Shown here: positions 3,093 to 36,606 of the stretch, in pieces
How positions within the stretch are numbered: the stretch's first letter is position 1
How the letters are laid out: each line of letters opens with the position of its first letter
NCBI GenBank assembly: GCA_030018915.1
Contig: JASEHE010000001.1
Location: 15,843-79,842 of the forward strand
Direction: 5' to 3'
Source of the DNA: Verrucomicrobiota bacterium
Lineage (GTDB): Bacteria > Verrucomicrobiota > Kiritimatiellia > UBA8416 > SLMC01
Length of the DNA: 64,000 nt
Program-made: the position numbers and the translations under genes
The notes under the pieces: generated by a model
What the model was told of the DNA's origin: nothing
The model's database searches: none
What the model saw: the letters and a program-made list of their open reading frames with translations, nothing else

Positions 3093-3995
3093 TCACATTC
3101 CGAGCTGACCCAGCCGCAGTTCCTGTTGACTGGGCATGCGCGCCAGGGATTCGAACTCGAGTTCCCTGAGAAACGGCGCCACCTTTTCCGGCGCCGCAAG
3201 CACGCGCTGAAAGCGCGGCCATTCCATTCCGGTCACGGCGTCGCGGCGCAAAGCAACCAGCCGCAGATTGCGCAGCACCCCATCGCGATGTTCTTGCAGC
3301 GAGCGCCGGAGCCGATCCTTGTCAATCTGCTCCAAGCGGTCCAGCAGCCCTGCCGTCGTCCCAAACCGGGCCAAAAGCCCGGCGGCGGTCTTTGGCCCCA
3401 CTCCTGGCACCCCTGGAATGTTGTCCGACGAATCGCCGGTGAGGGCCAGCCAGTCAGGAATCTGCGCCGGCATCACGCCCGTCTTTTCCGCGACCTCCCG
3501 CGGCCCCATCGGCCGCTCTTCGCCCGCGAGAGGCAGGATGCGGACTCTATCGGTCACCAACTGGTAGAGGTCCTTGTCGCTGGTGGCGATGAGGACTTCC
3601 TCAGTCGCCGGTTCCGCCCAGGCCACAACGGACGCGATCAGATCGTCCGCCTCCTGCCCCTCCTGCCGCAGCATGGGGATATCGGCCCGATCCAGGTATT
3701 CCATTGCCAGGCCCACCTGGCCTCGCAAATCGTCCGGCATGGGAGGTCTCTGCGCCTTGTACTCCGGCAGCAGTTCGGTTCGTTCGATGGGGATTCCAGC
3801 GTCAAATGCCACGGCCCAATGCGTCGGATTCAGAATCTCTTCGATTCGCCGAAGCTTTTTGATGAAGCCGAACACCGCGTTGGTCGGCCGGCCGGCCCGG
3901 GTGGACAAGCCCTTGATGGCATAAAACGAACGGTAGAGCACAGCCGCGCCGTCAACCAGGATGAGCCTGACCTTGCCGGACATTGCGGAACTCAC
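3093..3995 (-). CDS. Stand-alone 5'-3' exonuclease (PolA N-terminal-like, FEN family)
   Basis: 300 aa. VRLILVDGAAVLYRSFYA start, acidic metal-binding clusters and GVPGVGPKTAAGLL helix-hairpin-helix typical of 5'-3' exonuclease/FEN domains. Confidence 0.75.
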   Translation of the reverse strand: MSSAMSGKVRLILVDGAAVLYRSFYAIKGLSTRAGRPTNAVFGFIKKLRRIEEILNPTHWAVAFDAGIPIERTELLPEYKAQRPPMPDDLRGQVGLAMEYLDRADIPMLRQEGQEADDLIASVVAWAEPATEEVLIATSDKDLYQLVTDRVRILPLAGEERPMGPREVAEKTGVMPAQIPDWLALTGDSSDNIPGVPGVGPKTAAGLLARFGTTAGLLDRLEQIDKDRLRRSLQEHRDGVLRNLRLVALRRDAVTGMEWPRFQRVLAAPEKVAPFLRELEFESLARMPSQQELRLGQLGM

Positions 3996-6910
3996 GGCCG
4001 CGCGGCGGCGGCTGCGTCCGGCGCCGCCTTTGAGACGAGCGGCGCCCGTTTCATGATCGGTTTGCCGGCCGGGTCCACAAGCCGCGCGGTCACGAAGATG
4101 AGCAGGTTGCGCTTATCGGCTTTGTCGTAGCGGCTGCGGAACAGCCGGCCGAGCAGCGGAATGTCGCCGAGCACCGGAATCTTGTCGTCAACGCTGCTGC
4201 GGATCTCGGTGATCATGCCGCCCATGACCACCGTGGCCCCATTGTAGATGGAAATCTGTGTGGTCACGGTGCGCGTGTGAAAAAAAGGCTGCTCCATGTT
4301 GAGCACCTGCTCGTTTCCCCACTGGTCCTTGAACACCGAACCGTAGTTGTGCCAGATCGGTTCCGACACCACCTCGGGCGTCATGGTCAGATTGATCATC
4401 TGGCCTTCCGGGCTGACCTCCGGCAGCACGGAAAGAATCACGCCGACTTCCCGGGTCTCGAAGGACCCTGGTTCCACGATGCCGCCGATTGCCACGAGAG
4501 TGCCCCCGGCGGCCGCCGCCAGGATGGGTTGCACTGTGAACTCCGTCGGATAGATGTACTCCGTGACCACCTTGATGGTCGCCTCCAGGCCCGACTTGGT
4601 CGTGACTTTCGGGGCCGAAAGCAGGTCGGCATTGCCTTTCTGCTCGATTGCATGCAACACCATCGAGATTTCCGGGTTCGTCAGAACGGCCGCCAGCGTC
4701 AGAACATCGTCGGGCTGCACGGTCGCGCCGGTGGGAACGGCCATGTCGCGCACAAAGCGCTCGCCCCTGGTGAATCCTCTATCGAGTCCACCCATGTTCC
4801 TCCCCATGATCAGGCGTGGCCGGCTGGACGGCGGCCCGACGGCGCCCGACTTGTATGCCATTTCCCAGTTGTCCGTCAGGCCCCATTCGATTCCGAAGGA
4901 ATTGAGGTCGGTCTGGCCGACTTCGACGAAGCGCGCTTCGATCTCGATCTGGCTGGGCACCACGTTCAGCGCGGCCAGCTTTTCCTCGAAAATTGCCAAG
5001 TTGTTCTCCGTGTTCGCCACCATGAGCTTGCCGATGGCCGGGACGTGCTTGATGAACGAGCCCCCCGGCCACTGCACGCCCATTTCCCCGAACAGATCCT
5101 TCAGATTCGTCTCCCTGGTGGTGGTGGTTCGTTCCAGAGCCGTAAAGTCGCTCTTCCTTGCCGTCGCGCTGAGTTCTTCCCTGGTCCTCTCCGTGACTTC
5201 CACAAAGGACGCCAGCACGTCATACATCCGGTGAATGATCGGGCCATCCGGCGCGTTGAACGGCACAATCATCACGACGCTCCCCTCGATGCGCCACTTC
5301 AAGTTGGCGATGGACGTGACGATCTTGAGCGCCTCCAACACCGTAATGTAGCGGGCGCTGAACGTGAGCAAGGGGACTTCCACCCCGCCCGCCGCCATCG
5401 CCGCCTCGGGGACGGCTTCCGCCGCAAATGGGTCCTGCTGAGCAGCCCAGACGGGCGCCGTCAAGCCGCCACCAGCGGCGCCCACAAGGCCCAGGTTCAA
5501 GATCATGTTCACGCCCCGCTTCTCCTTCGACTCGGAAGACAGCGGATCGTGCTCCACGCTGGACGATTGAAGGAACTGAATGACGTCCTGAATGTTGGCC
5601 TGCCGGAAATCAATGTCCGGGATTTCGATCTTTTCCATCTTGTCCATGATGGCCTTGCGTCTGGGGTCCTCGGTGCTGATCGGTTGTTGCCGGTCGGTGA
5701 CAGGCGCGCTCATCTCGCTTTCCATGAGGGCATAGTCCCGCCGGTTCCAGTCGCGCTGCACGTCCGTCATCATCTGCTTGCGGGTGTACTCGAGTTCCAT
5801 GATGGCGATGTCGCCCTTCCGATTCGCCACCTTCTCCATCATGCGGATGGCCTCGGTGTTGTACGGGTCCAGCTTGACGATCTTTTCGAAGAACTCCTGG
5901 GCTTTGTCCAGTTCTCCCGCCAGGTAGTGCTCGCGGCCTTGGCGCAGCAGGTCGCTGAGTTTCTCCTCGGCTTCCGTCAAATCCTTCTGCTGCCACCGCT
6001 GTGTTGGTTTGGGTGGAGGCGGAGGCGGCTTGGCCTCGCGCCGCGCGATTTCGGCGGCAAGATCCCCGGCCAAAGGATGCCCGATCAGGAGGGCCCTTCG
6101 ACACAGCTTTTTCGCGTCCTCATAGTCGGCCTGCTCCATGAGCCGGAATGCCTCCATATAGGTGCTTTCCATCATGCCTTTTTCGGCCGTCTTTCGGTCC
6201 GCCTCGTTCTCGGCTCTGAACCCGGCGTCCTTGAATGCGTCCACGGCGTCCTTGAAGAGCTTGGTTGACTCGGTGAACTTCCGGGCCTGGAATGCCTTGT
6301 TGGCCTCCACCAGGGCTTCCCGGCCGTGTCGTTCGTAGGCGCGCCGGCGGAGCTCCTCGCTGTCCTTCATGAGGTCTATTTCGGCGGATCGTGGATCCAT
6401 GGCCTTGACCGCAGCGCGCTCGAAATCTGCCGGCGCGGCTTCACCGGCGAGTGGCGCGGGCTCCGCCGCGGCAACTGGAGCTGGAGGAGGAACCGGAACT
6501 GGCTCCTCCTTCTTCACTGACGGTGGCGCCTCCATCGGAACCTTGCTTGCCTCCTCGATCGCCTTGTCAAGATCGTCCGACGCCTCGGGGGCCGCTCTAG
6601 CCGGCTCGGCAGCTGGTGGGGCTTCCGCGGGCTTCTCCGCCGGTTTCTCGGCCGGCGCGGGTTCAGCGGGTTTTTCCACCGGCTTTGCGGTTTCTTTCTT
6701 GGGGGAATCAAGTAGTCCTTCGATTGCCATATCAATCGCCAGGTCCTCGACGATCTCGGCGCCGGACTTCGCGGCCTGTCCGTACGCGGCGGTGGCCCAC
6801 AGTCCAACGCCTACCATGGCAGACAGCATTCCGGAAGCACAAACAAGGAAACACGCCTTTTGTTTCATCGGAAAATTCTCCTCTACCGTTCTACCGCAAA
6901 CCGTAACCAA
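3992..6910 (-). CDS. pilQ: Secretin (type IV pilus / T2SS outer-membrane channel) with N-terminal TPR-containing region and PAEK-rich linker
   Basis: 972 aa, signal peptide MKQKACFLVCASGMLSAMVGVGLWATAAYGQAA. The C-terminus VVMGGMITE...SVDDKIPVLGDIPLLGRLFRSRYDKADKRNLLIFVTARLV is the canonical secretin signature. TPR-like helices and a (PAEK)n low-complexity linker lie upstream. Confidence 0.8.
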   Translation of the reverse strand: MVTVCGRTVEENFPMKQKACFLVCASGMLSAMVGVGLWATAAYGQAAKSGAEIVEDLAIDMAIEGLLDSPKKETAKPVEKPAEPAPAEKPAEKPAEAPPAAEPARAAPEASDDLDKAIEEASKVPMEAPPSVKKEEPVPVPPPAPVAAAEPAPLAGEAAPADFERAAVKAMDPRSAEIDLMKDSEELRRRAYERHGREALVEANKAFQARKFTESTKLFKDAVDAFKDAGFRAENEADRKTAEKGMMESTYMEAFRLMEQADYEDAKKLCRRALLIGHPLAGDLAAEIARREAKPPPPPPKPTQRWQQKDLTEAEEKLSDLLRQGREHYLAGELDKAQEFFEKIVKLDPYNTEAIRMMEKVANRKGDIAIMELEYTRKQMMTDVQRDWNRRDYALMESEMSAPVTDRQQPISTEDPRRKAIMDKMEKIEIPDIDFRQANIQDVIQFLQSSSVEHDPLSSESKEKRGVNMILNLGLVGAAGGGLTAPVWAAQQDPFAAEAVPEAAMAAGGVEVPLLTFSARYITVLEALKIVTSIANLKWRIEGSVVMIVPFNAPDGPIIHRMYDVLASFVEVTERTREELSATARKSDFTALERTTTTRETNLKDLFGEMGVQWPGGSFIKHVPAIGKLMVANTENNLAIFEEKLAALNVVPSQIEIEARFVEVGQTDLNSFGIEWGLTDNWEMAYKSGAVGPPSSRPRLIMGRNMGGLDRGFTRGERFVRDMAVPTGATVQPDDVLTLAAVLTNPEISMVLHAIEQKGNADLLSAPKVTTKSGLEATIKVVTEYIYPTEFTVQPILAAAAGGTLVAIGGIVEPGSFETREVGVILSVLPEVSPEGQMINLTMTPEVVSEPIWHNYGSVFKDQWGNEQVLNMEQPFFHTRTVTTQISIYNGATVVMGGMITEIRSSVDDKIPVLGDIPLLGRLFRSRYDKADKRNLLIFVTARLVDPAGKPIMKRAPLVSKAAPDAAAAARP

Positions 6911-6948: not shown

Positions 6949-8022
6949 TTAGTCGTTCCGCTTCGTCAGTTTCTGACCGACCGTGAATTGTTTGCCGTCT
7001 TGCTCGCGTTCTATTGCCACACTTTCAGAATCCCTGTCAATTCGCAACATCTTGTACCGCTCGTCCTGAAGCACGAAAACGTCTCCGGGCTTCGCGGCGA
7101 TCTCTTTACTTCCCACGAGGAAAAACAAATGAACAGTATACTCGAACTGCTCGGCGTCCACGCCCTTCACCAGCACGACGACTTTATCGCCCTGCACCAA
7201 GGTCAGTTCGGACAGGTCAACCCGTTGCGACACCTTGCTGGTCGCCGTCGTCCTCATCTCGTATTTCTCTTCGAACTTGACCAGCTTGAATCCGCACGCT
7301 TCCTGGCCGATCTTCTTGAAGAACGTCATCAGGCTGCCGGCCTGGCTGCGGTTGAGGCCGTAGGTCCGGAAGCCGTCCGGACCGACGACCGTGCTCCTGA
7401 ACTTGAGGATGAATGGACGGACAACGAGCCTATCGACACGCAGTTTAGCCGGCAATTCCGGCCGGCTCCTGGGATCGGCGGGATCGGTCGAAGGCTGCGC
7501 GAGGCATTCCTCGACATTACTGAACCCGTCGTCGTCCTTGTCTTTGTTGGCGTCTGTCGGATCGAGAGGGTTGAGGCCGTGCTTCTTCTCCCATTCGTCT
7601 GGCATCTGGTCCTTATCCGTATCGCGACGGATGTCGATAATTGGCGGTTGTGGCCTCTTGCAGCCTTCGTGCGCGCATTGCATTGCAAGGTATGGGATCG
7701 GCCAGCGGCAATCCACGCACCACACCCGCATCTCGGGGGTGACCAATTGCCGATTGGTCCATGCATTGTAATCGATCTGGAAGGGCGCCCCGATCGCCTT
7801 CCGCGCCTGTTGGAAAACGGATTCGTCCTGGACTTCCGCGTCGAGATGCGCCGGTTTCATGTCGCGAATCTCCTCGTCCCATTCCCGTTGTTTCTCCTGG
7901 ATGCGGCCGATCTGCACGGCCAGATAGAGCAGAGAGAGAATAAGGCACACGAGCATGACAAACGCAATGAGTTTATCATGGTGAGTTCTGAGCGCGTCAA
8001 CGATGTCGTCAAACACCTTCAC
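6949..8022 (-). CDS. Pilus-cluster bitopic membrane protein (PilP position) with CxxC...Cx4C zinc-ribbon-like motif and TSP3/EF-hand-like DxDxDG motif
   Basis: 357 aa, one N-terminal TM (LIAFVMLVCLILSLLYLAVQI), VWCVDCRWPIPYLAMQCAHEGC, DPTDANKDKDDDGFSNVEEC. Translationally coupled (4-nt overlaps) to flanking pilus genes. Positional equivalent of Amuc_1099. Confidence 0.5.
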   Translation of the reverse strand: MKVFDDIVDALRTHHDKLIAFVMLVCLILSLLYLAVQIGRIQEKQREWDEEIRDMKPAHLDAEVQDESVFQQARKAIGAPFQIDYNAWTNRQLVTPEMRVWCVDCRWPIPYLAMQCAHEGCKRPQPPIIDIRRDTDKDQMPDEWEKKHGLNPLDPTDANKDKDDDGFSNVEECLAQPSTDPADPRSRPELPAKLRVDRLVVRPFILKFRSTVVGPDGFRTYGLNRSQAGSLMTFFKKIGQEACGFKLVKFEEKYEMRTTATSKVSQRVDLSELTLVQGDKVVVLVKGVDAEQFEYTVHLFFLVGSKEIAAKPGDVFVLQDERYKMLRIDRDSESVAIEREQDGKQFTVGQKLTKRND

Positions 8023-9035
8023 GGCGTAGTCTCTCCGGCTTTTGCGCGGCCTCGGGCCGGTTCAAACTTGTAGACGGTCACATTCATCCGCGCCTGGAGT
8101 GGTTTCTCGAGGGTCGGGCCGCTGACCACCCGGTCCTCCCGTTGCGGCCAGACCAAGCGGGCAGGAACTTTCTCCTCGGCCTTGTCCGCGCCGTCCGGCT
8201 TCGCGGCCGGCGTCCTGGCACTAGGGCGCCCTGCTGCGGCAACGTCGATCTCTTCCGCCGCCTGGGCCGGCGACGGCTTGACTCCGGTCCACTCGTTCTG
8301 CGCATCCAGGAACGTCACCACGGTGAAGGCGCCGAGTTTCGCGAGGCGATTCAGGATTCTCACGACCGAGGATTCCTTGGCTTTGAAGTCCAGCGCGAAG
8401 GACTGCCTGGTGTAGACGACTTTCTCGGCGGTCTTCGCCTCCGCCTTTGCCGGCTCCCTCGCCGCATGCCGGCGGCCGGAGGTCTCGAGCGCGCCCGGCG
8501 TCTTCTGCTCCTCGAATTCTTCACGGGCAACCCGCGTCAGCGCCGCGGCGCCTTCCTCGAAGACCGCCCGGCACACTGCCTGGACGATCAAGAGCTGCTC
8601 GTTCAGACGCATGACGTCCGTCGGAGACGGCATGATGCCTCCGGCATATTTCTCGAAGCCGAATTCGAAACGGGGCGGCAGCGCCGCGCCATGCTTCTCG
8701 GCTTCCTGGACCAGTTCCTTCTTCGCGTCGCTCAACAGGGTGAGCAGAATGGCCGGGCTGACTTGTACGACCTTGATCTCGCCCTGCCGCAGGTCGTCCG
8801 TGAGCCGCCCACGCCAGTCGGCGCAGACCTGCGCGTTCTTACGCTCGCGCTCGACGTTCTCCAGACTTGGGAACGGCTTGTTCCGATAGAAGTTGCGAAG
8901 GGTCCTCATGGCGGAATCCACGTCGCCCTTTACCGAGTTGAAGCGCTCGATCTCCCCGTAGAGCAGGAAGGCGGCCACGGCGACCAGCACCGCCACGGTC
9001 GCCGCGCCGATGATCACGAAGATGTTGGTTTTCAC
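8019..9035 (-). CDS. Amuc_1100-like / PilO-family pilus-associated membrane protein
   Basis: 338 aa, N-terminal TM (IFVIIGAATVAVLVAVAAFLLY) followed by coiled-coil, C-terminal A/P/K-rich tail. Same position (between secretin/Amuc_1099-like and PilM) and architecture as Akkermansia Amuc_1100. Confidence 0.45.
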   Translation of the reverse strand: MKTNIFVIIGAATVAVLVAVAAFLLYGEIERFNSVKGDVDSAMRTLRNFYRNKPFPSLENVERERKNAQVCADWRGRLTDDLRQGEIKVVQVSPAILLTLLSDAKKELVQEAEKHGAALPPRFEFGFEKYAGGIMPSPTDVMRLNEQLLIVQAVCRAVFEEGAAALTRVAREEFEEQKTPGALETSGRRHAAREPAKAEAKTAEKVVYTRQSFALDFKAKESSVVRILNRLAKLGAFTVVTFLDAQNEWTGVKPSPAQAAEEIDVAAAGRPSARTPAAKPDGADKAEEKVPARLVWPQREDRVVSGPTLEKPLQARMNVTVYKFEPARGRAKAGETTP

Positions 9036-10699
9036 CGGAGCCTGTCTCCGCTGGTTTCAATGGGTTTGTTCAGGCGCGCGCGAATGGTGAACTCCCAGGT
9101 GGAATCAATCAGCAGTTGGCGCTCCAGCTCCGTCTTGTCGGAAAAAAGGCCCGATTCGCGGAGCCGGTCCCGATAGACCACGATCGGCGTCTTGTCCACC
9201 GTGGCCGCCAGCTTGAGCTTATCGTCAAACCCACGCCCGACGATCTCTACCCCTTCCACACGGTCGCCGGCCGGGGCGAGCGGCCGGATCGAGTTGAGCC
9301 ACATTCCGTCCAGCAGGCACGCGTGAATCGCATCAATCATTTGCAGCCATTGCGTCCGCGTCCCGATGACCAGCGCGATCTCGTCCAGGTCCTTCTGGAC
9401 GGCCTGCTTTTCTTGCTGGACGCTCTTGAGGCGGCCTTCGATTTTCCGGAAATCCGCGATCCGTTTTCCCGCGGTTTCGAGCCGGGTTTCCAGCATGGCC
9501 CGCATCCGGTGGAAGTAGACCCACCAGCAGAGCATCGTCAGGATCAGGCCGACCCCGGCCAGGATGAAGAACGGTTGCCGGCGCCGGAGTACCCGCCGGG
9601 CCAGGAGGTCGGGCGGCATGAGGTTGATTTCAACCGGACAAGTCAAGGCCCGCCGCAGGGCCAGGCCGGCCACCTCCCCGAGGAGGTGGAGGTCCCCCTC
9701 AATGCGCTTGGGCTCAATGGACTCGTTGACGGCTATGTTGGCGAACGGGTTGAGGTATTCCACTTCGACCGTGAGCTTCTCCCGGAAGAACGTATCCATG
9801 TGCGGGATGATCGCCGAGCCGCCGGTCAGCAGCACGAGACTCGGCGGTTGACCGCCCTGCTGGCTCCGGTAGAAGTTGATCGAGCGGTTGATTTCGGCGT
9901 GGAGCCGGGTGATGACGTTGCGCGCGATCTTGGACACCCGGTTCGCCGTCTCGTTCTCCGGTCCGGCGTAGACGCCGCCGAAGGCGACGAACGCGTGAGC
10001 CAGCTTCAACTCCTCGGCCTCCTTGAAGGGAATCCCGAACTCCTTCATGAGTTCTGTCGTAATCGCGTTGCCGGCCACAGGAATGCTGCGGCTGAAAATC
10101 CGGCTCTCCTCGATGAAGATCAGGTTCGACGATCGAGCGCCGATGTCCAGAACCATGGCGCAGCCGGGAAGGCCCGGATAGTTGTAGCGGACCGTGTTGT
10201 ACAGGGCCATGGGCGCCGCGTCTATGATTTCCGGCTCGAGGCCGGCCGCCAGCACGCAGTCCGTCAGCCGCGTGATGTTCTCGATCTTGACGGCCACCAG
10301 CATGACGTTCAGGTCGTCCGGTCCTCCGCCGCTGATCAACTGGTAGTCCCAGACCACCTCGTCAATCGGGAACGGGACGTTCTGCTCGGCTTCGTAGCGG
10401 ATGATCTGCACGACCTTGTCTCGGGCCACGGGCGGCAGCTTGACGTACCGCGGGAACACCGCCTGGCCCGACAGGGTCATGAAGAGCGGCGCCGGCTTGA
10501 TGCCGCGCTCGGCCATCAACTGGCGAATGGTGGAGACAATATAGGCGGATGCGTCGGTCTCGCTCTCGGGGTCCACGTCGAGATGCCCGACGGCATAGTT
10601 CAGGAGCTCAGGCGCGCCCGATTTGGCGGCGGAGAACTCCGCCATCACAATCTTACTGGCGCCGACATCCAGGGCGATTATTCGGTCGGTTCGAAACAC
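9032..10699 (-). CDS. pilM: Type IV pilus assembly PilM (actin-like ATPase) fused to PilN-like TM/coiled-coil domain
   Basis: 555 aa. IIALDVGASKIVMAEF actin-like fold start and PilM/FtsA-like core. The C-terminal part carries a TM (FFILAGVGLILTMLCWWVYF) plus coiled-coil, as in PilN. Confidence 0.75.
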   Translation of the reverse strand: MFRTDRIIALDVGASKIVMAEFSAAKSGAPELLNYAVGHLDVDPESETDASAYIVSTIRQLMAERGIKPAPLFMTLSGQAVFPRYVKLPPVARDKVVQIIRYEAEQNVPFPIDEVVWDYQLISGGGPDDLNVMLVAVKIENITRLTDCVLAAGLEPEIIDAAPMALYNTVRYNYPGLPGCAMVLDIGARSSNLIFIEESRIFSRSIPVAGNAITTELMKEFGIPFKEAEELKLAHAFVAFGGVYAGPENETANRVSKIARNVITRLHAEINRSINFYRSQQGGQPPSLVLLTGGSAIIPHMDTFFREKLTVEVEYLNPFANIAVNESIEPKRIEGDLHLLGEVAGLALRRALTCPVEINLMPPDLLARRVLRRRQPFFILAGVGLILTMLCWWVYFHRMRAMLETRLETAGKRIADFRKIEGRLKSVQQEKQAVQKDLDEIALVIGTRTQWLQMIDAIHACLLDGMWLNSIRPLAPAGDRVEGVEIVGRGFDDKLKLAATVDKTPIVVYRDRLRESGLFSDKTELERQLLIDSTWEFTIRARLNKPIETSGDRLR

Positions 10700-11747: not shown

Positions 11748-11856
11748 ATTAACTCGGTGATGACACATGTGGGTGTCTGCGATTGGCCCGAAGCTGCCGC
11801 AGGGACTGGATAGCAGACGGGCCGCCCGACGAACCGTCAGACCCGGAGGTTGCTCC

Positions 11857-24726: not shown

Positions 24727-24730
24727 AACC

Positions 24731-28249: not shown

Positions 28250-29419
28250 ATGCCCATGATCGAGAAGAAGAAGCTCTCGCAAACGATGCGGATCGATCTG
28301 ATCCCGGACGTCCCCGCAAGGCCCGTGCCGGGCAAAAAGAAGCGCTACATCGTGTCGTCCCTCGCGCCCGGGGCTACGGTCATTCGGCCGCGCGCGCCAG
28401 AGGAGACGGCGAAGGGCACGGAGTACGAGGAGTTGCTGCAGAGTCTGTACGACGCCGCCTTGATCACGGACATGGCAGGCAAAATTGTTGACGTCAATTT
28501 CCGGGCGCGGGAATTCCTGCTCTACAACCGGCATGATCTCCGAGGCATGGCTGTTTTCGACGTGATTTCCGGCGCCGACGAGTCGCTCATCCGGACTCTG
28601 GCGGCCAACCTGGCGAACGAGCGTTATACGCTCATCCAGGCGTACTGTATCCGAAAGGACGGCTCCTGCTTCCCCTCGGAAATCGCGGTTAATCGGCTTC
28701 GACTGGCGGATGCGCGGCTGTGTTTCTTTATCCGCGACACGACGTTGCGGCGTCAGGCGGACGAAATGCTTAGAACCGAGCACAACGCGATTCAGAACTC
28801 GGGCGACGGGATCGCGATCGCCGATACGAACAATCAACTGGAATACGTCAATCCGGCCGCAGCCCGGATGTGGGGATACGACGAAACGGACGAATTGCTC
28901 GCGCTCCCGGTGGCCGATCTGTGGGCCGACCACGAGGCGGCTGAGGCGATGATGAACGCTGTCACGAGCGATCGGCAGTTTTGGAAGGGCGAACTAATGG
29001 CAAAACGCAAGGACGGTTCGCTGTTCGACACGCAGGTGTCCGCCGCCTTGAACAGGAACTCGGACGGCGAGCCGGTTGGCGCAATTTTTTCCTTTGTTGA
29101 CGTGAGCGACCGCAAGCGCGCGGAAGAGGCGGAGCGCGAGGCGGAGCGCCGGCGAGTAATGCTGGAGAGTCTCGGCGCCGCCTGCCATCACCTGGGGCAG
29201 CCGGCCACGGTTCTTCTGGCCAATCTGGGCATCATGAAGAGGAAACTGGAGGGTTCTTCCACCGATACGACTGTAAAGTCGCTCCTGGACGACAGCATTT
29301 GCGCCATGGAGACATTGGGGAAGATTCTGCACAAGCTGAACGCGGTGAACGAGTACAAGACGACCAAGTACATCGAGGACACGGACGGCGCGGCATTCAG
29401 CCGGATATTGGATATCTGA
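28250..29419 (+). CDS. PAS–PAS–DHp sensor protein lacking a catalytic ATPase (HATPase_c) domain (PilS position)
   Basis: Start at MPMIEKKKLSQTMRIDLIPD. The first PAS (YEELLQSLYDAALITDMAGKIVDVNFRAREFLL...CFFIRDTTLRRQADEMLRTE) is a close paralogue of the PAS of the hybrid kinase at 59891-61561. The C-terminal AACHHLGQPATVL aligns with the HisKA H-box (SHELRTPL). No G1/G2 ATP-binding boxes follow. Confidence 0.65.
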   Translation: MPMIEKKKLSQTMRIDLIPDVPARPVPGKKKRYIVSSLAPGATVIRPRAPEETAKGTEYEELLQSLYDAALITDMAGKIVDVNFRAREFLLYNRHDLRGMAVFDVISGADESLIRTLAANLANERYTLIQAYCIRKDGSCFPSEIAVNRLRLADARLCFFIRDTTLRRQADEMLRTEHNAIQNSGDGIAIADTNNQLEYVNPAAARMWGYDETDELLALPVADLWADHEAAEAMMNAVTSDRQFWKGELMAKRKDGSLFDTQVSAALNRNSDGEPVGAIFSFVDVSDRKRAEEAEREAERRRVMLESLGAACHHLGQPATVLLANLGIMKRKLEGSSTDTTVKSLLDDSICAMETLGKILHKLNAVNEYKTTKYIEDTDGAAFSRILDI

Positions 29420-29530: not shown

Positions 29531-29926
29531 CTAGTCGATGTAGACGTGTTCCGGGAAAGAACCTACCACCGGGCACGTAGGCGTTTCGTCAACGCGGTTA
29601 ACGTAGTAGTATTGAACAGTCGCTTGGCCGGCCCCAGCTTCGAGACACTCCAGAACGTGGGTGCCATCTATGTAGGGGTCCAAGTTCGACCAGGCGGTTG
29701 CGTCGTTCGCGCCGGCTGATTGACCAATAATCTGCCCGTTTGTCCAATCGAGCTTGATGGCCAGCACTTCCTTGGCGTGGTCAATCAAGCGCAGGTTATT
29801 GACGCACAGTCCCCGACGCGCATCCTTGCGATACTGCAGAAAGGCGGGGATGGCGATCGCGGTCAGCAATGCAATAATCGCCACCACGATCATAATCTCC
29901 ACCAACGTGAAACCTCTTTTCTTCAT
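29531..29926 (-). CDS. pilA: Type IVa major pilin
   Basis: 131 aa. MKKRG-FTLVEIMIVVAIIALLTAIAIPAF (short leader, Phe+1, Glu+5). GGAGGAG RBS directly upstream. Sigma54 -24/-12 promoter ~100 nt upstream. Confidence 0.75.
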   Translation of the reverse strand: MKKRGFTLVEIMIVVAIIALLTAIAIPAFLQYRKDARRGLCVNNLRLIDHAKEVLAIKLDWTNGQIIGQSAGANDATAWSNLDPYIDGTHVLECLEAGAGQATVQYYYVNRVDETPTCPVVGSFPEHVYID

Positions 29927-30316: not shown

Positions 30317-31711
30317 CTATTCTCCTTCCACCGGGTGCTTTGCCTCTTCGCCATCAGGAAGCTTGCGGTAGAGAGTGGCCAGACTGATCTTGAGCGCTTT
30401 TGCGGCCTTCTCCTTGTCGCCATTCGCGACGGAGAGGACCTGCTTGAGGTACTCCTTCTCCTTGGTTCGAAGGAAGGCCTTCAGGGACTTCGCTTTCGTT
30501 GAATCAATGTCTTCCGCCCCAAGAGGTTTTGAAGTTTGTATCGGCGTGACGGCTATCTTCGGAGGAAGCACATCCTTGGTGATCTTGTTGTCCCGCGCAA
30601 AGGTGATGGCATGCTTGATGGCGTTTTCCAGCTCTCGGACGTTCCCCGGCCAGGGATAGGATTCGAAGATTGCCGATATTTCCGGATCGATCAAGGGAGG
30701 GGGCTGCCCCTGCGGAGTCTCGGTGCGTAGAAAATGAGAAACAAGCAGCAGAATATCCTCGCGTCGTTCCCGTAGTGGCTTGATCTCGATGGGGATAACG
30801 TTCAGCCGATAGAAGAGGTCCTCGCGGAACTTGCCTTCCTGGATCATCTTCTCGATGTTGGTATTGGTGGCGGCAATGACGCGCACGTCAATGGGGACAT
30901 CCTTGTTACTGCCGACTCTGCGGACTTCCTTCTCCTGAAGCACGCGCAGGAACTTGCCCTGGATACTGAGCGGCATGGAGGAAACCTCGTCAAGGAAGAC
31001 GGTGCCGCCGACCGCGGCTTCCAGAAGGCCTTCTTTGTTGGCCGTGGCCCCGGTAAAGGATCCCTTTACGTGCCCGAACATCTCCGATTCCAGGAGGGGC
31101 TCCGGGAGCGCCGCGCAACTGACCGCCAGGAAGCGCTTGTCGCGGCGCTGGCTGTGCGCATGAATGGCCTTGGCAACCAGTTCCTTACCTGTTCCGCTCT
31201 CGCCGTAGATCAGCACAGCCGTGTTTGTGGGCGCGACTTTCTTGATCATTTCGCAGACATTCTGCATGGCCTTGCTCTCGGCCACGATGTTATTCAAGTG
31301 GTATCGCGCCCCGAGCTGGGCCTTGAGGTAGACGTTCTGGACCCGCAACTTGCTGTACTCCAGGGCGCGCTGGACGGTGATGAGGAGTTCGTCCACTTTA
31401 AAGGGCTTGGTGACGTAGTCGAACGCGCCGAGCTTCAGAGCCTCGATCGCGGTCTCCACGGAACCGTAGGCGGTAAGCATGACGACCGGCAGGGCGGGTT
31501 TTTCGTCATGGACGCATCGGAGCAGTTCCATGCCGCTGATGGGCGCCATGCGGATGTCAGAAAGCATGAGGTCGAATTCCTGGCTCGCCAGCAATTCCTT
31601 GGCCTTCTCGCCGCCGAGAGCAGGAACAACATCATGCCCCTCTGCCTTGAGAAGAGTGCTGAGAACGCTCAGGATACTGGGCTCGTCGTCAATAAGGAGT
31701 ATTTGGGCCAT
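30317..31711 (-). CDS. pilR: Sigma54-dependent response regulator (NtrC family; PilR-like)
   Basis: 464 aa. REC domain (ILLIDDEPSI...D54-like), AAA+ sigma54-interaction domain (GESGTGKE, GAFTGA-like ESEMFGHVKGSFTGA), C-terminal HTH. Confidence 0.85.
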   Translation of the reverse strand: MAQILLIDDEPSILSVLSTLLKAEGHDVVPALGGEKAKELLASQEFDLMLSDIRMAPISGMELLRCVHDEKPALPVVMLTAYGSVETAIEALKLGAFDYVTKPFKVDELLITVQRALEYSKLRVQNVYLKAQLGARYHLNNIVAESKAMQNVCEMIKKVAPTNTAVLIYGESGTGKELVAKAIHAHSQRRDKRFLAVSCAALPEPLLESEMFGHVKGSFTGATANKEGLLEAAVGGTVFLDEVSSMPLSIQGKFLRVLQEKEVRRVGSNKDVPIDVRVIAATNTNIEKMIQEGKFREDLFYRLNVIPIEIKPLRERREDILLLVSHFLRTETPQGQPPPLIDPEISAIFESYPWPGNVRELENAIKHAITFARDNKITKDVLPPKIAVTPIQTSKPLGAEDIDSTKAKSLKAFLRTKEKEYLKQVLSVANGDKEKAAKALKISLATLYRKLPDGEEAKHPVEGE

Positions 31712-31862: not shown

Positions 31863-33083
31863 TCAGCCCTTCTGCACTATTTCGCCGATCTTGAAGATGG
31901 GGAGAAACAGGCAGACGACAATTCCGCCGATGAGCACGCCGAGGATCACCATAAGCAGCGGTTCGAGCAGGGAGGTGAGGCCAGCCAGGGTGGTTTCAAC
32001 TTCGTCGTCGTAGAAGTTGGCGATGTTGTCCATCATCTCGTCGATTTTCCCCGTCTTTTCGCCGGCCTGCAGCATGCGCACGAGCATGATTGGAAAGACG
32101 GTCTGAGTCAGCATGGCGTTGGAAAGCGGCTCTCCCTTTTCCAGGCAGCCTCTGGCGCTCAGGACGATATTGCCCGCCACCTTGTTGCCGGTGGCGCCGG
32201 CGACGATGTCGATGGCGGTGAGGATCGGGACGCCGCTGCGAATGAGCTGTCCGAACATGCGGGCAAAGCGGGAAGACGCCACTTTCTTGTTCAAGTCGCC
32301 GAACACGGGCAGTCGGAGCGCCAGCCGGTCCAGAATGAATCCGCCCGTCGGCGTGGCCTTCCATTTTTTGAAGGCGATCACAAGCCCCGCGATGAGCAGA
32401 ACGACCACCAGCCCGTTGTGGCGGATGAGATTGCTGAGGTTCATGAGGGCCCGCGTCGGCCCTGGGAGTTCCCCGCCGAGTCCCGCGAACATGTCGGCGA
32501 AGATCGGGACCACGAAAACAACGAGGGCGGTGGCAATGGTGAGGGCCAGGCACATGACGATCGCGGGATACATCATGGCGGACTTGACTTTGCGGCGGAG
32601 TTTGGCGCTGGATTCCAGAAAACCGGCGAGTCGCGCAATGGTTTCCGGCAGTTGCCCGCCGGATTCGCCGCCCTTGACCATGTTGCGGTACAGGTCGTCG
32701 AACACCGATGGGAACTGACGCAGCGCGTCCGAGAAGGCGGCCCCGTTTTCGATGTTGCGCTTGATCTGGCCGATTGCGTATTTGAAGTTGGGGTTGTCGG
32801 CCTGTTCCTCCATGGCTTCGAGGGACGCGAGGATCGGCATGCCGGCGGACAACATGGCGGAGAGCTGGCGGGAAAAACCCGGCAGCGTCTTCTGCACGAT
32901 CTTCTTGGCGCCCGGCACTTTTTTCTTGGCGCCCGCCCTGGCGGCGGCTGGCGCGCCCGTCTTTTGCGTGGCCGCTGATGTGGAAGTGGAGACGGCAGGG
33001 CGAACCCCGGCCGCTCGCGACACGACAGGACTCATGGCGCATGTCTCCTTTAAGCAGTCGGCGCGTTTCCCAGGCAGAGCCAA
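31863..33083 (-). CDS. pilC: Type IV pilus / T2SS inner-membrane platform protein (PilC/GspF family)
   Basis: 406 aa. Duplicated GspF-type domains with three TM segments (YPAIVMCLALTIATALVVFVV, LVVVLLIAGLVIAF, LLMVILGVLIGGIVVCLFLPI). Confidence 0.8.
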   Translation of the reverse strand: MALPGKRADCLKETCAMSPVVSRAAGVRPAVSTSTSAATQKTGAPAAARAGAKKKVPGAKKIVQKTLPGFSRQLSAMLSAGMPILASLEAMEEQADNPNFKYAIGQIKRNIENGAAFSDALRQFPSVFDDLYRNMVKGGESGGQLPETIARLAGFLESSAKLRRKVKSAMMYPAIVMCLALTIATALVVFVVPIFADMFAGLGGELPGPTRALMNLSNLIRHNGLVVVLLIAGLVIAFKKWKATPTGGFILDRLALRLPVFGDLNKKVASSRFARMFGQLIRSGVPILTAIDIVAGATGNKVAGNIVLSARGCLEKGEPLSNAMLTQTVFPIMLVRMLQAGEKTGKIDEMMDNIANFYDDEVETTLAGLTSLLEPLLMVILGVLIGGIVVCLFLPIFKIGEIVQKG

Positions 33084-33098: not shown

Positions 33099-34874
33099 TT
33101 ACCGCGAACTCACGATCTTGAGGGCAGCTTCAAAACTGGTCTCGCCGAGCTTGACTTTCTCCAGGGCGCTCACCGAGAGCGTCTTCATGCCTTTTTGCGC
33201 CGCCCTGTCGCGCAAGGCGTCGGCGGGCGCCCGCCGCATCATCAGCAGGCGGATATCTTCCTCAATGGGGAGGACTTCCATCACGGCGGCGCGGCCGCTG
33301 TAGCCGATGCTGTGGCACTTCGGGCATCCGGAGGGCCCGTATATCTTGCAGCCTTGGAACAGCGCGGGGTCCACGTGGTGAAGCTTGAGCAGTTCCTCGG
33401 GCATGGGCGCCTCCTTCTTGCAGATCGGGCACAACTTTCGGTAGAGGCGCTGGGCCTGAGTCAGGATGATGGACGAGGCGAGCAGGAAGGGCTCAATGCC
33501 CATGTCCAGCAGGCGGGTGATCGTGCTGCAGGCATCGTTCGCGTGGATGGTGCTGAGCACCAGATGGCCCGTGAGGGCAGCCTTGATGGCGATGTCCGCC
33601 GTGTCCCCGTCGCGAATCTCGCCGATCAGCACGATGTCGGGATCCTGCCGAAGGATGGCGCGAAGCGCGTCGCCGAACGTGCAGCCGGCGGTCTTCTTGC
33701 CCGCCGTGGCGGCGTTATGGTCGCCGTGAGCGCCGGATGCGGACGAGGCCGCAGTGATTTTCACCTGGATCACGCCGGGAATCTGGTATTCCACCGGCTC
33801 CTCGCAGGTGACGACGTTCACGTCAATCTTGTTCAGCTCGCGGAGGCAGGAGTACAGGGTGGTCGTCTTGCCGCTGCCGGTCGGCCCAGTAACCAGGATG
33901 ATGCCGTGCGGCTGATTGATGGCGTAGTTCATGGCAGCAAGGGCGCGTTCGTCCAGGTTCAGGTAGGACAGGCCTGGAAAGAGCGAGTTCTTGTCCAGCA
34001 GGCGCATGACCACCCGGCCGCCGAAGATGGTGGGCAACACGCTCACGCGGACGTCAATGCTCTTGTTCAGCGTCGTGATCCGGAAACGGCCGTCCTGCGG
34101 GTGGCGCTGTTCGCCGATGTCAATGTCAGCCAGAATCTTGACGCGGGAGACGACGGCCGACTGCAAGGTCTTGGGCAGACTGGGCCGTTCGACCAGGACG
34201 CCATCAATCCTGTAGCGAAGACGCAGGAAATTCTCCTGTGGCTCGATATGGATGTCGTTGGCTCCCAGGCGCACGGCTTCGATCAGGATCATGTTGACCA
34301 TTCGGATGACGGGCTGATCGCCGGCGCTTTCCATCATCTTCTCCAGGCTCTCCGCTTCGGTCTCTTCGACGGCGCCCACTTCCATTTCGACTTCGGGGGA
34401 TTTCATGAGCGTCTCCAGGTCTACCGCGGCGCCCCGGTCGGCCATCGCGCGCCTGATGGCGTTGACGATGTCCGGTTCGCTGGCCACGAGGGGAACGATC
34501 GCCAGGTCGGTGAGCGTATGCAGCTCGTCCATCGCGACGATGTTGAATGGGTCTCCCATGGCCACCGTGAGCGTCTTGCCGATCTTGGCGACTGGGATAA
34601 GTTTGTGCCTCGCCATGATCTCCTTGGGGACGCGTTCCAGGACCTGCGCGTCGGCGGTGAAGTGAGCCAGCGATATGGGCGGGATGCCCAAATACTCGGA
34701 AATGGCGAGCGCCAAGTCTTCCTGAGAGAGCAGGCGCTTGTCGAGAAGCTCTTTCTCGATCGTGACGCCGCTGTTCAGCGCCTCCTGCTCCGTCTGCCGC
34801 AGGACATCGGGCTCCACCATGTTCCTGCGGATCAGGATGTCGGTCAGTTTGATTGGGCCGGTCTTTTTGTCCAT
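33099..34874 (-). CDS. pilB: Type IV pilus / T2SS assembly ATPase (PilB/GspE family), paralogue 1, with A/S/G-rich insertion
   Basis: N-terminal T2SSE_N domain, Walker A GPTGSGKTTT, Asp box, tetracysteine motif CPxC...CxxC. Carries an ~20-aa insertion VKITAASSASGAHGDHNAATAGKK not present in the adjacent paralogue. Confidence 0.85.
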   Translation of the reverse strand: MDKKTGPIKLTDILIRRNMVEPDVLRQTEQEALNSGVTIEKELLDKRLLSQEDLALAISEYLGIPPISLAHFTADAQVLERVPKEIMARHKLIPVAKIGKTLTVAMGDPFNIVAMDELHTLTDLAIVPLVASEPDIVNAIRRAMADRGAAVDLETLMKSPEVEMEVGAVEETEAESLEKMMESAGDQPVIRMVNMILIEAVRLGANDIHIEPQENFLRLRYRIDGVLVERPSLPKTLQSAVVSRVKILADIDIGEQRHPQDGRFRITTLNKSIDVRVSVLPTIFGGRVVMRLLDKNSLFPGLSYLNLDERALAAMNYAINQPHGIILVTGPTGSGKTTTLYSCLRELNKIDVNVVTCEEPVEYQIPGVIQVKITAASSASGAHGDHNAATAGKKTAGCTFGDALRAILRQDPDIVLIGEIRDGDTADIAIKAALTGHLVLSTIHANDACSTITRLLDMGIEPFLLASSIILTQAQRLYRKLCPICKKEAPMPEELLKLHHVDPALFQGCKIYGPSGCPKCHSIGYSGRAAVMEVLPIEEDIRLLMMRRAPADALRDRAAQKGMKTLSVSALEKVKLGETSFEAALKIVSSR

Positions 34875-34881: not shown

Positions 34882-36606
34882 CTACTCGCCCCCGCCCGTG
34901 ATGCTGAGCGCGGCATCCAGACTGGTGATGCCGTCGCGGACTTTGTTGAGTCCGATCTCCTTCAGGCTGAGCATGCCCTTCTTCTTGGCGTGGGCCGCGA
35001 GGTCCTTGGAGCTCAGGCCGTTGAGGATGTCCGCGCGCAATTCCCGGTCCACGGGGAGCGCCTCCATGATGGCCATGCGACCCTTATACCCGCTGTTGCG
35101 GCATTTCATGCAGCTGCCGGCCTCGTAGGTGGTCACACCATCGAACAACTCCGGAGAAATGTTGTACCCCCGGAGCAACTTTGTCTGGAGTTCTTTGGCG
35201 GGTTTCTTGCAGGATGGGCATAGTTTGCGGAGCAGGCGCTGGGCCTGGGCCAGGATCAGCGCCGAGGAGAGGAGCGAAGGCTCCACGCCCATGTCCACCA
35301 TGCGGGTGATCGCGCTCGGGGCGTCGTTCGTGTGCAGGGTGCTGAGCACCAGGTGCCCGGTCAGCGCCGCCTTGATGGCGATGTCCGCCGTCTCGTTGTC
35401 GCGAATCTCTCCCACGAGGATGATGTCGGGGCTCTGCCGGAGCACCGACCGTAGCGCCGCGGCAAACGTCAACCCAATGAACGAATTGATCTGCACCTGA
35501 TTGACGCCCGGCAGTTGATACTCCACGGGGTCTTCGCACGTGACGATGTTCACGTCCGGTTGGTTGAGTTCCATGAGGCAGGAGTAGAGCGTCGTCGTCT
35601 TGCCGCTGCCAGTGGGCCCTGTGACGAGCAGAATGCCGTTTGGCTCCGAGATGGCCCTTCGCATGGCGACATAGGCCGCCTCGTCCAGCCCGAGCGCGGA
35701 CAGGCTCGGGAAAAGCGCCGCCCTGTCGAGAATCCGCATGACCGTTTTCTCGCCGAAAATCGTCGGCAGCATGTTGACGCGCAGGTCCACCTCCTTGCCC
35801 AGGGCTCGGAGTTTGATCCGGCCGTCCTGAGGCACGCGGTGTTCGGCGATATCCATATTGGACATCAGCTTCATGCGCGAGACAACGGCGCCCTGGAGGC
35901 TCTTCGGAGGCCCGGGAACTTCCATGAGCGCTCCGTCAATCCGGTAGCGCAGGCGCAGCGTCTTCTCCTGCGGCTCAAGGTGAATGTCGCTGGCGCTCTG
36001 GCGCAAGGCTTCCACGAGAACCATGCTGACTATGCGGACGACCGTGCTGCCTCCGGACCGTTCGATGATGGCCTCGATAGATTCGTCTTCCTCATCCCGG
36101 ACTTTCTGATGGGTGATCTCCTGGTCGGAATCGGCCTCCTTGAGGATTTCCTCCATGTTCATCCCTTCCATCTGGTCCGGGAAGGCCCGTTCGAAGGTTT
36201 CGGTGATCTCTTTCTCCGCGGCGACCAGGGGTGTGATCTCCAGCCCCGTCATCACATGCAGCTCGTCGCGGGCGATCAGGTCGAACGGATCGGCCAGCGC
36301 CACGGTCAGCGTGTTACCCATCTTGGCGATCGGGATGACCCGGCGCCGGATGAGCATCTCGCGCGACACGGAGTCAAGCAGATGGGCCGGCGGCGCAAAG
36401 TGGGAGAGCGCGATCGGAACGATGCCGAGATACTCGGCGAGGGTCAGCGTCATGTCGGATGCGCTCACCAAGTTCTTTTCCAGCAGGTGCTTCTCGATCC
36501 GGATGCCCTGGGAGAAAGCCTCATGCTCGGCCGCCGCGAGCGCGGCGGGATCGATCAACCCGCGCTTGACCAGAATGTCGGTAATTTTGCCGAGGGCCAT
36601 GGCCAT
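34882..36606 (-). CDS. pilB: Type IV pilus / T2SS assembly ATPase (PilB/GspE family), paralogue 2
   Basis: 574 aa. MALGKITDILVKRGLIDPAAL N-terminus, Walker A LVTGPTGSGKTTTLYS, GVNQVQINSFIGLTFAAALRSVLRQSPDIILVGEIRD, CPSCKK...CMKC. Confidence 0.85.
   Translation of the reverse strand: MAMALGKITDILVKRGLIDPAALAAAEHEAFSQGIRIEKHLLEKNLVSASDMTLTLAEYLGIVPIALSHFAPPAHLLDSVSREMLIRRRVIPIAKMGNTLTVALADPFDLIARDELHVMTGLEITPLVAAEKEITETFERAFPDQMEGMNMEEILKEADSDQEITHQKVRDEEDESIEAIIERSGGSTVVRIVSMVLVEALRQSASDIHLEPQEKTLRLRYRIDGALMEVPGPPKSLQGAVVSRMKLMSNMDIAEHRVPQDGRIKLRALGKEVDLRVNMLPTIFGEKTVMRILDRAALFPSLSALGLDEAAYVAMRRAISEPNGILLVTGPTGSGKTTTLYSCLMELNQPDVNIVTCEDPVEYQLPGVNQVQINSFIGLTFAAALRSVLRQSPDIILVGEIRDNETADIAIKAALTGHLVLSTLHTNDAPSAITRMVDMGVEPSLLSSALILAQAQRLLRKLCPSCKKPAKELQTKLLRGYNISPELFDGVTTYEAGSCMKCRNSGYKGRMAIMEALPVDRELRADILNGLSSKDLAAHAKKKGMLSLKEIGLNKVRDGITSLDAALSITGGGE

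Follow-up and report, generated by a model that had tools for sequence, protein, structure and literature searches.

A Kiritimatiellia counterpart of the Akkermansia Amuc_1098-1102 locus reads as the PilMNOPQ-type alignment and secretin module of a type IV filament machine

Amuc_1100 of Akkermansia is among the most studied probiotic effector proteins and is usually called an outer-membrane pilus protein. Here, we analyze a 64-kb stretch of a Verrucomicrobiota bacterium of the class Kiritimatiellia (contig JASEHE010000001.1, positions 15,843 to 79,842; GC content, ~62%), which contains a minus-strand cluster of five genes at 3992-11460 resembling the Akkermansia locus Amuc_1098-1102 (MUL2); this stretch is referred to as the window. 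The MUL genes, which encode pili and periplasmic complexes, are reported to be required for mucin acquisition by Akkermansia (PMC12418764; PMC13174399; preprint 10.64898/2025.12.30.696933). A resemblance of Amuc_1100 to PilO/PilN has already been noted, and Akkermansia has pilus genes elsewhere in its genome as well (both in preprint 10.64898/2025.12.30.696933). In Akkermansia, too, the cluster probably does not suffice as a minimal machine by itself. According to an ISME J paper from 2026, the MUL2 locus of Akkermansiaceae features a neighborhood of secretin, dephospho-CoA kinase, and rho; Verrucomicrobiales frequently retain the locus, Chthoniobacterales do so less often, and Methylacidiphilales lack it (PMC13174399). 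In the searchable literature, we found no paper linking Amuc_1099 to PilP.

The five genes of the window are co-oriented in the order 1102-1101-1100-1099-1098, and for every product the best NCBIfam match is the corresponding Amuc family. They are given here with their bit scores and the curated NCBIfam cutoffs:

10762..11460, minus strand: secreted protein of the Amuc_1102 family, first gene of the cluster; 232 aa, Sec-type signal peptide; Amuc_1102_rel, E=8.5e-16, 58.1 bits, above the cutoff of 55
9032..10699, minus strand: PilM-PilN fusion protein of the Amuc_1101 family; 555 aa; Pfam PilM_2 (PF11104), E=1.9e-39; Amuc_1101_fam, E=1.4e-147, 493.1 bits, below the cutoff of 650
8019..9035, minus strand: Amuc_1100-family protein; 338 aa, with an N-terminal transmembrane (TM) helix, long helices, and a ferredoxin-like domain; Amuc_1100_fam, E=1.1e-25, 90.8 bits, below the cutoff of 180
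6949..8022, minus strand: Amuc_1099-family protein; 357 aa, with a TM anchor, a Cys4 motif, TSP3-type Ca-binding repeats, and C-terminal beta domains; Amuc_1099_fam, E=2.8e-18, 66.6 bits, above the cutoff of 50
3992..6871, minus strand: TPR-extended secretin of the Amuc_1098 family; ~959 aa (open reading frame [ORF] to 6910, likely ATG at 6871); Amuc_1098_fam, E=1.5e-123, 413.6 bits, below the cutoff of 750

We consider this cluster very probably to be the Kiritimatiellia/Lentisphaeria-type orthologue, within the Planctomycetes-Verrucomicrobia-Chlamydiae (PVC) group, of the Akkermansia locus. The latter (MUL2; NF042912, NF042425, NF038287, NF045709, NF042424; PF28028, PF28178) has the same five-gene order, provides the best family match for all five products, and shares the downstream coaE-rho neighborhood (PMC13174399). 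A preliminary description of the window had proposed this homology and gene order and had made them depend on similarity of the 8019-9035, 6949-8022, and 10762-11460 products to Amuc_1100, Amuc_1099, and Amuc_1102, respectively; all three similarities are present. The profile searches it suggested returned, besides the five Amuc families, Secretin, T2SSE, T2SSF, PilM_2, and N_methyl, whereas T2SSK and the Pfam PilN family gave no match, PilN being recovered in another way, as described below. Within the cluster, only the TPR-secretin and the PilM-domain protein had matches in the Pfam copy used; the other three products had none.

The Amuc_1101-like protein scores 159 bits with the TIGR01175 pilM model, above its cutoff of 133. 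Its layout is that of a cytoplasmic, actin-like PilM followed by the PilN motif 'EINLMPP', a TM helix, a coiled coil, and a periplasmic domain. While Pfam PilN gave no match in this product, a profile of its C-terminal 200 aa, built from 63 homologues, matched the PilN of Myxococcus xanthus (3JC8_Na, E=1.8e-6), the alignment beginning at the signature motif (INLLP-type) and extending across the TM helix and the coiled coil. At the level of sequence profiles, these matches identify the protein as PilM fused to PilN, the architecture of GspL.

The exact Amuc_1100-like product is held at NCBI under the name "Amuc_1100 family pilus-like protein" and carries Pfam PF28028. Against the PDB, its single sequence found nothing by phmmer, and a 3-sequence profile likewise gave no Amuc_1100 match; a 138-sequence family profile, by contrast, reached the Amuc_1100 crystal chains with E ~4e-9. 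The size of the relative set depended on the search, a word-indexed one yielding 3-4 relatives and an exhaustive one 1288 cluster representatives. The protein has the Amuc_1100 fold, as the preliminary description had anticipated; structural alignments with Amuc_1100 give 11-16% identity. Its predicted structure also contains the ferredoxin-like periplasmic domain typical of PilO. These models identify it as a predicted PilO/GspM partner, anchored in the inner membrane.

For the Amuc_1099-like protein, the predicted structure places a PilP/GspC homology region (HR) domain among the C-terminal beta domains, with structural comparison scores of 7.8 (4AV2_M), 7.7 (2Y4X), 7.2 (2IVW), and 7.1 (3JC8_Pa) against PilP and of 7.7 (DotF) and 7.1 (OutC) against proteins of other systems. 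Based on this model, the protein would be a TM-anchored PilP/GspC equivalent whose HR domain is predicted to dock onto the N0 domain of the secretin. Its N terminus is a TM helix, and inspection by eye found no canonical lipobox. Across 60 homologues, C102, C105, and C116 never vary, and C119 is kept in at least 90%; many homologues are recorded with PF18884, which we take to be a bacterial TSP3-repeat family, and the window protein itself has Asp-rich TSP3-type repeats. Its earlier characterization as a membrane protein with a Zn ribbon and Ca motifs thus fits both the four conserved cysteines and the Asp repeats.

The last gene encodes a secretin pore with a TPR extension (Pfam Secretin, E=3.5e-35; TPR_2 at residues 321-351; GspD model, 145 bits; PilQ model, 135 bits). 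No Pfam AMIN domain was matched in this protein, whose N terminus bears the TPR instead. The product of the first gene is a Sec-exported accessory subunit; queried as a 306-aa ORF (10765-11682), 74 residues into which the 232-aa protein begins, it matched Amuc_1102 (PDB 7DSZ) by phmmer with E=1.2e-8 over residues 158-304. The fused PilM-PilN, the TPR-fused secretin, and the secreted protein at the front had all been recognized in the preliminary description. It had also held all five genes to be coupled by 4-nt overlaps, which is true of the 1101/1100 (9032-9035) and 1100/1099 (8019-8022) junctions, both GTGA, but not of 1102/1101 or 1099/secretin, which are separated by 62 and 77 nt, respectively. 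Given the PilM and PilN matches together with the PilO-like, PilP/GspC-like, and secretin identities, the cluster order is therefore that of pilMNOPQ behind one extra leading gene, the Amuc_1102 homologue. These domain and fold identities show that the cluster encodes the alignment and outer-membrane module, spanning the envelope, of a type IV filament machine.

A one-genome-per-species scan with the PilM-N alignment yielded 69 loci, nearly all from metagenome-assembled genomes (MAGs) labelled Kiritimatiellia, Lentisphaeria (Victivallales, Lentisphaerales), or "Verrucomicrobiota"; the Lentisphaeria loci include one Victivallis vadensis MAG, and a single locus, at 37% identity, belongs to Verrucomicrobiia. 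Mapping the window proteins onto these loci, we found all five genes in the same order in 45 of them; another 23, cut by contig ends, agree as far as their sequence runs, and one is unrelated, making the order consistent in 68/69. The synteny comparison called for in the preliminary description hence finds the order in relatives across Kiritimatiellia, Lentisphaeria, and Verrucomicrobiia. Downstream, coaE and rho are present in 29/36 loci, usually (26/36) with a 5'-3' exonuclease gene in between. The present loci widen MUL2 synteny to include the Kiritimatiellia/Lentisphaeria part of the phylum, which implies an old, vertically inherited system. In two loci (L034, positions 1-6100; L039, positions 1-8600), rpsM-rpsK-rpsD-rpoA-rplQ, then PilC, then the cluster lie on one strand, with SecY also present in L039. 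Such a core housekeeping neighborhood, be it the ribosomal operon or coaE-rho, is unusual for an envelope machine.

Compared with the Akkermansia locus, the window differs in several respects. Its proteins are very divergent. An exonuclease gene of the 5'-3' type is inserted after the secretin gene, to which it is translationally coupled, its start overlapping the secretin stop by GTGA. Genes for ATPases, platform, and pilin are found no more than 25 kb away, and the host belongs to the Kiritimatiellia/Lentisphaeria side, whereas the published survey covers Verrucomicrobiales, Chthoniobacterales, and Methylacidiphilales (PMC13174399). With the PilM-PilN-PilO-PilP-PilQ system of type IVa pili (T4aP) as known from Pseudomonas and Myxococcus, the cluster shares the gene order and the same four structural modules, including a PilM above the curated cutoff and a PilN motif and TM segment detected by profile. 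In contrast to T4aP, PilM and PilN are fused, the Amuc_1102 gene comes first, and no PilT was seen in the window; moreover, PilP of T4aP is a lipoprotein, while the putative equivalent here is TM-anchored, with Cys4 and TSP3 inserts, and PilQ bears AMIN where the window secretin bears TPR.

Genes that would supply the parts without a counterpart in the cluster lie 10-25 kb away. One set comprises the motor, pilin, and regulator genes at 28145-36606:

34882..36606, minus strand: PilB-type assembly ATPase 1 (PilB1); T2SSE, E=5e-132; MshEN
33099..34874, minus strand: PilB-type assembly ATPase 2 (PilB2); T2SSE, E=6.7e-123; MshEN
31863..33035, minus strand: PilC/GspF platform protein; Pfam T2SSF twice, E=2.9e-64
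30317..31711, minus strand: NtrC-family sigma-54 activator with REC, AAA+, and HTH_8; Sigma54_activat, E=5.8e-72; Response_reg
30046-30031, minus strand: sigma-54 promoter TGGCACaagtaTTGCT, ~105 nt upstream of the pilin ATG
29531..29926, minus strand: short-leader type IV pilin; 131 aa, MKKRG/FTLVE; N_methyl, E=4e-8; ATG at 29926, ribosome-binding site visible
28145..29419, plus strand: PAS-PAS protein; PAS_9, E=1.3e-23; DHp-like H-box (…CHHLGQP…)

PilC and the two nearby PilB ATPases had been named before and are borne out by these Pfam matches and by PilB and PilC models outscoring GspE and GspF. PilB1 gave 614 bits with the PilB model versus 562 with GspE, and PilB2 571 versus 521, both ATPases falling under the curated PilB cutoff and under that of GspE (630); the platform protein gave 353 and 342 bits with PilC models versus 322 with GspF (cutoff, 424). 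Walker A, Walker B, His box, and Cys4 motifs are intact in both PilB paralogues. Relative to PilB1, PilB2 carries an insertion of ~20 aa (ITAASSASGAHGDHNAATAGKKTAGCTF) ~40 residues past Walker A, and PilB1 has a weak match to the MshE-type c-di-GMP-binding motif (21.6 bits; cutoff, 38).

The best NCBIfam matches of the pilin are T4 pilin N termini. TGGCACaagtaTTGCT is the sole exact TGGCAC-N5-TTGCW match in the window, which agrees with the earlier proposal of a major pilin under a sigma-54 promoter; sigma-70 promoter and terminator scans performed no better on the window than on shuffles. Regarding the "PilR-like" activator of the preliminary description, the REC-sigma54-HTH architecture stands, but the best NCBIfam matches are AtoC and NtrC, each below cutoff, making it a generic NtrC/AtoC-family protein that is PilR-like by context. 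The PAS-PAS gene sits on the opposite strand between the pseudopilin operon described next and the pilin gene. Its product is a possible sensory partner of the activator; HATPase_c gave no match in it, and partial histidine kinase alignments end at the H-box. No complete sensor kinase adjoins the regulator.

The other set is a pseudopilin operon at 21187-27917:

27129..27917, minus strand: GspG-like pseudopilin 1; 262 aa; Pfam T2SSG, 44.6 bits (cutoff, 21); N_methyl
26518..27033, minus strand: GspG-like pseudopilin 2; N_methyl; TIGR01710, 50 bits; weak Pfam T2SSG
26086..26511, minus strand: GspG-like pseudopilin 3; N_methyl; TIGR01710, 47.5 bits, below cutoff
25359..26069, minus strand: pseudopilin in GspH/FimU position; N_methyl, E=8e-8; weak Pfam GspH and TIGR01708
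24756..25319, minus strand: pseudopilin in GspI/PilV position; G/FSLVE motif; weak TIGR02523 PilV and Verru_Chthon cassette protein B, below cutoff
24064..24726, minus strand: pseudopilin in GspJ/PilW position; N_methyl; weak gspJ and Verru_Chthon cassette protein C
23534..23971, minus strand: extra GspG-like pseudopilin; N_methyl, E=5e-5; TIGR01710 GspG, 41 bits, below cutoff
21187..23547, minus strand: 786-aa protein in GspK/PilX position; prepilin-like, GspK-style N terminus without Glu5 (G/VALIIVLGVLAV)

The operon had been described as gspG-H-I-J-K. The operon itself and its G, H, I, and J positions stand; there are, however, eight genes rather than five (three GspG-like, H-like, I/PilV-like, J-like, an extra G-like, and the K-position gene), and the last lacks GspK similarity. 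TIGR01710 GspG stays below cutoff for every G-like protein, and the matches at H, I, and J are weak and N-terminal. The 786-aa protein had no T2SSK/Pfam, NCBIfam, or PDB sequence match, even at E<=5, and a metagenome scan gave no relatives; a weak homologue occupies the same operon position in one related locus (L027). Its putative K assignment is made by position and N-terminal motif alone. A further ORF at 26066-26749 was rejected as a gene, being an out-of-frame artifact that overlaps two real pseudopilin genes. Two heptanucleotide tandem repeats stand at gene starts within the operon, a perfect TCGGCAA x3.9 at 24001-24027, between the J-position stop and the likely start of the next gene, and ACCGACC x3.7 at 24728-24753, between the I-position stop and the J-position start. 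As their unit is not a multiple of three, slippage there could shift expression.

The FimU-PilV-PilW-PilX minor pilins of T4aP are homologous to GspH-I-J-K and stand in the same order. An operon ordered H-I-J-K is therefore no sign of a type II secretion system (T2SS), and the suggestion of a T4aP/T2SS hybrid from the gspGHIJK order was over-interpreted. ATPases and platform also score slightly higher on PilB and PilC models. With T2SS (GspC-GspD-GspL-GspM, GspG-K), the window shares the GspL architecture of the PilM-PilN fusion and one pseudopilin that clears Pfam T2SSG. In contrast to T2SS, the order is pilMNOPQ and not gspC-D...L-M, and ATPases and platform do better on PilB/PilC models, none reaching the GspE or GspF equivalog cutoff; above-threshold GspK, GspI, and GspJ matches are lacking, and the window has a short-leader pilin under a sigma-54 promoter. 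The Verru_Chthon cassette (TIGR02596, TIGR02598, TIGR02599), a pseudopilin-like set of Verrucomicrobium and Chthoniobacter, is weakly matched by the H-, I-, and J-position proteins, which correspond in sequence of genes to its proteins D, B, and C, respectively, with a large protein after them. These scores are 22-30 bits against cutoffs of 51-256 and concern the prepilin N terminus only; they hint that the cassette may be the same kind of minor-pilin operon.

Searching the window with its own proteins (phmmer, six frames) revealed no second secretin, second PilM, second PilC, or third T2SSE ATPase. ORF scans and six-frame phmmer found no PilT in the window, and prepilin peptidase (PilD) had no match among the scanned window ORFs, which outside the locus were those of about 150 aa or longer. 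The other 27 kb hold housekeeping genes, namely KpsF-like (SIS and CBS), nucleoside diphosphate kinase (NDK), aminotransferases, LpxB, LpxI, CarAB, PyrG, PurF, PlsY, PurC, and NrdR, and also two-component proteins. With no third ATPase and only housekeeping genes elsewhere, PilT and PilD are therefore, as far as sequence searches indicate, absent from the window, in agreement with the preliminary description; from a complete T4aP set, the window has PilA, two PilB, PilC, and genes in minor-pilin positions, without PilT or PilD. Bacterial NDK is normally one domain of ~140 aa; the protein at 38007-39230 (plus strand) has 407 aa and three matched stretches of the NDK domain. At the far window end (59085-63361, minus strand), a two-component run consists of a double-REC protein, a PAS-HisKA-HATPase-REC hybrid kinase, and a 589-aa protein with a weak HisKA match.

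Between the cluster and the pseudopilin operon, a 9.7-kb block on the opposite strand encodes two large secreted proteins:

11767..13329, plus strand: secreted protein P520; 520 aa; divergent from the cluster; TSP3-like repeat; C-terminal FYRVAVTN
13344..21035, plus strand: giant secreted protein; ~2480 aa from Met 13593; PA14; C-terminal FYRVVATN

The PA14 domain of the giant protein is supported by Pfam (E=2.5e-11) and a PDB match (6QDI); the protein may be an adhesin or a cargo. Both proteins end in a common motif, …PVFYRVAVTN… in P520 (13230-13329) and …VIFYRVVATN… in the giant protein (20940-21035). Homologues of P520 adjoin the cluster in other genomes (L003, L005, L008, L012-L014, L020, L028, L033, L036), and 13 of 16 such cluster-adjacent homologues have a C-terminal (F/Y)YR, extending to ATN in ~8. 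The shared motif may serve in sorting or anchoring, or it may simply form the final strand of a common domain.

Taken together, the data are read most simply as one type IV filament machine. That the cluster is the Amuc_1098-1102/MUL2 orthologue and all parts belong to one such machine is, in our judgment, probable; for the single machine taken by itself, we lean toward it with somewhat less assurance. In this machine, which we outline after general knowledge of type IV filament machines, the two PilB, PilC, the pilin, and the eight-gene pseudopilin/minor-pilin operon, all on the same strand as the cluster, would provide what the cluster lacks. Prepilins would be processed by a PilD encoded outside the window, and PilB-type ATPases acting on the PilC platform would pull pilins from the inner membrane and polymerize them, with the H/I/J/K-position proteins as a putative priming tip complex. 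The PilM-N, PilO-like, and PilP-like proteins would couple this motor to the secretin via the HR-N0 contact, and the filament would exit through the secretin. The pilin would be transcribed from its sigma-54 promoter under the adjacent NtrC-type regulator, with the neighboring PAS protein (DHp-like H-box, no ATPase domain) possibly forming part of the regulator input. The analogy with Akkermansia makes it likely that the machine serves to attach to complex glycans or to acquire them.

The strongest competing explanation, though an unlikely one, is that two filament systems share the one alignment/secretin module. A sigma-54-regulated T4a-like pilus (PilA and one PilB) would then work alongside a T2SS-like pseudopilus, in which the GspG-like and H-I-J-K-position proteins and the second PilB would secrete substrates such as P520 and the 2480-aa protein. 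Tandem PilB paralogues, both with intact motifs, would be accounted for in this way, as would the four G-like or major-type pilins beyond the H/I/J set, a pseudopilin 1 that clears the Pfam T2SSG threshold, T2SS-like alignment proteins (the fused L-like and the TM-anchored C-like protein), and two large secreted proteins that have a common C-terminal motif and recur beside the cluster. Yet the window has a single PilC platform, both ATPases score higher as PilB than as GspE, though under each cutoff, the H-I-J-K order is common to T4aP minor pilins, no GspK similarity was found, and the secretion substrates are speculative. The preliminary description had left the choice between one machine and two sharing a secretin; we favor the single machine and keep the pair at this lower confidence.

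For linkage beyond the window, we counted genes upstream of the Amuc_1102 gene in the 32 relatives whose upstream sequence extends for 8 kb or more (flanks of up to 10 kb):

pseudopilin operon: 1/32 (L027; divergent, 2.6 kb off, same internal order)
PilB: 1/32 (L022)
PilC: 2/32
P520 homologue: 10/32
giant-protein homologue: 6/32, after P520

These counts for the pseudopilin operon, PilB, and PilC mean that tight linkage of motor and pilin genes to the cluster is not conserved and that their proximity here is particular to this genome; consequently, the earlier view of the locus as one "expanded to a full machinery" does not hold as a property of the locus. Different machinery pieces do stand beside the cluster in different genomes, namely PilC and PilB 6-9 kb upstream in L022, PilC immediately upstream in L034 (which, with ~6 kb of upstream sequence, is outside the 32) and L039, and a prepilin gene right before the Amuc_1102 gene in five loci (L005, L026, L028, L033, L036). 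In our reading, this supports co-function without proving it. Upstream of PilC in L034 and L039, 376-aa ORFs considered as PilT turned out to be RpoA.

It is in light of these counts that nearness in the window could be coincidental, the Amuc-type cluster being a self-contained conserved envelope module, and the PilB, PilC, pilin, and pseudopilin genes serving a separate system with its own secretin and alignment genes beyond the window. The conserved context of the cluster is indeed housekeeping (5'-3' exonuclease, coaE, rho; the ribosomal/rpoA operon in L034 and L039), motor and pseudopilin genes are rarely within reach (the operon in 1/32 relatives, PilB or PilC in 3/32), and the opposite-strand block separates both gene sets in the window. 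However, a pilMNOPQ-type module is not known to be active in the absence of ATPase, platform, and pilins. Machinery parts adjoin the cluster elsewhere, as just described (PilC, the pseudopilin operon, a prepilin gene), and 64 kb contain no second secretin or PilM, which leaves coincidence improbable.

Least likely of all, and very improbable, is that the product of the cluster is not a classical pilin filament but, e.g., an Amuc_1102-based fiber or a glycan uptake channel whose secretin works inwards, as proposed for Akkermansia mucin acquisition: Amuc_1102 reportedly resembles an archaeal type IV pilin and models as a homotrimer (PMC13174399), MUL genes are reportedly needed for mucin-product accumulation inside the cell (PMC12418764), and the Amuc_1102 gene always leads the operon, but the window protein has a Sec-type rather than a class III prepilin signal and so would not be assembled by the usual PilC/PilB route, and sequence offers no evidence on the direction of transport.

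Several observations weigh against the single filament machine that we prefer. Three of the five products (1098, 1100, 1101) are under their curated equivalog cutoffs. For PilO and PilP, the assignments come from predicted structures rather than from sequence; similarity to GspK is not detectable in the K-position protein; and PilD and PilT are not in the window, the result covering these 64 kb and not the whole genome. In ~28/32 relatives, the cluster is unlinked to ATPase, platform, or pilin genes within 8-10 kb, which is why co-function is inferred here rather than shown. For a role in glycan or mucin acquisition and for surface exposure, the source is the Akkermansia literature. The signal is also genuinely mixed, combining GspL- and GspC-like architectures in pilMNOPQ order with four major-type pilins and two PilB paralogues.

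A more far-reaching proposal, which we regard as improbable, joins these strands. The Amuc/MUL2-type pilM(N)OPQ would be ancestral to Verrucomicrobiota sensu lato as a whole (Verrucomicrobiia, Kiritimatiellia, Lentisphaeria), a core system passed down vertically and fixed beside rho and coaE. In the present lineage, it would serve a dual-mode machine of two PilB motors, one platform, and one secretin. The tasks of this machine would be to extend a sigma-54-regulated pilus and also to export or display giant glycan-binding proteins of the PA14 type, which would be recognized via the shared C-terminal (F/Y)YR(V/I)xATN motif. If this were true, the 'outer-membrane' Amuc_1100 would be an inner-membrane PilO-type alignment protein across the phylum.

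The cluster is not a new kind of system, as NCBIfam and Pfam models exist and the PilO/PilN resemblance of Amuc_1100 is in the literature. It is a divergent member from a different class of the phylum and as such useful for interpreting Amuc_1099 and Amuc_1100. Its conservation in order and neighborhood reaches beyond the three surveyed Verrucomicrobiota orders, to Kiritimatiellia and Lentisphaeria. The resolution of the cluster into PilM-N, PilO, PilP/GspC, and secretin, together with its wide synteny, argues that Amuc_1100-family proteins are parts of the alignment complex of an ancient type IV filament machine. This sharpens hypotheses on glycan attachment and uptake and points to cultured relatives such as Victivallis.

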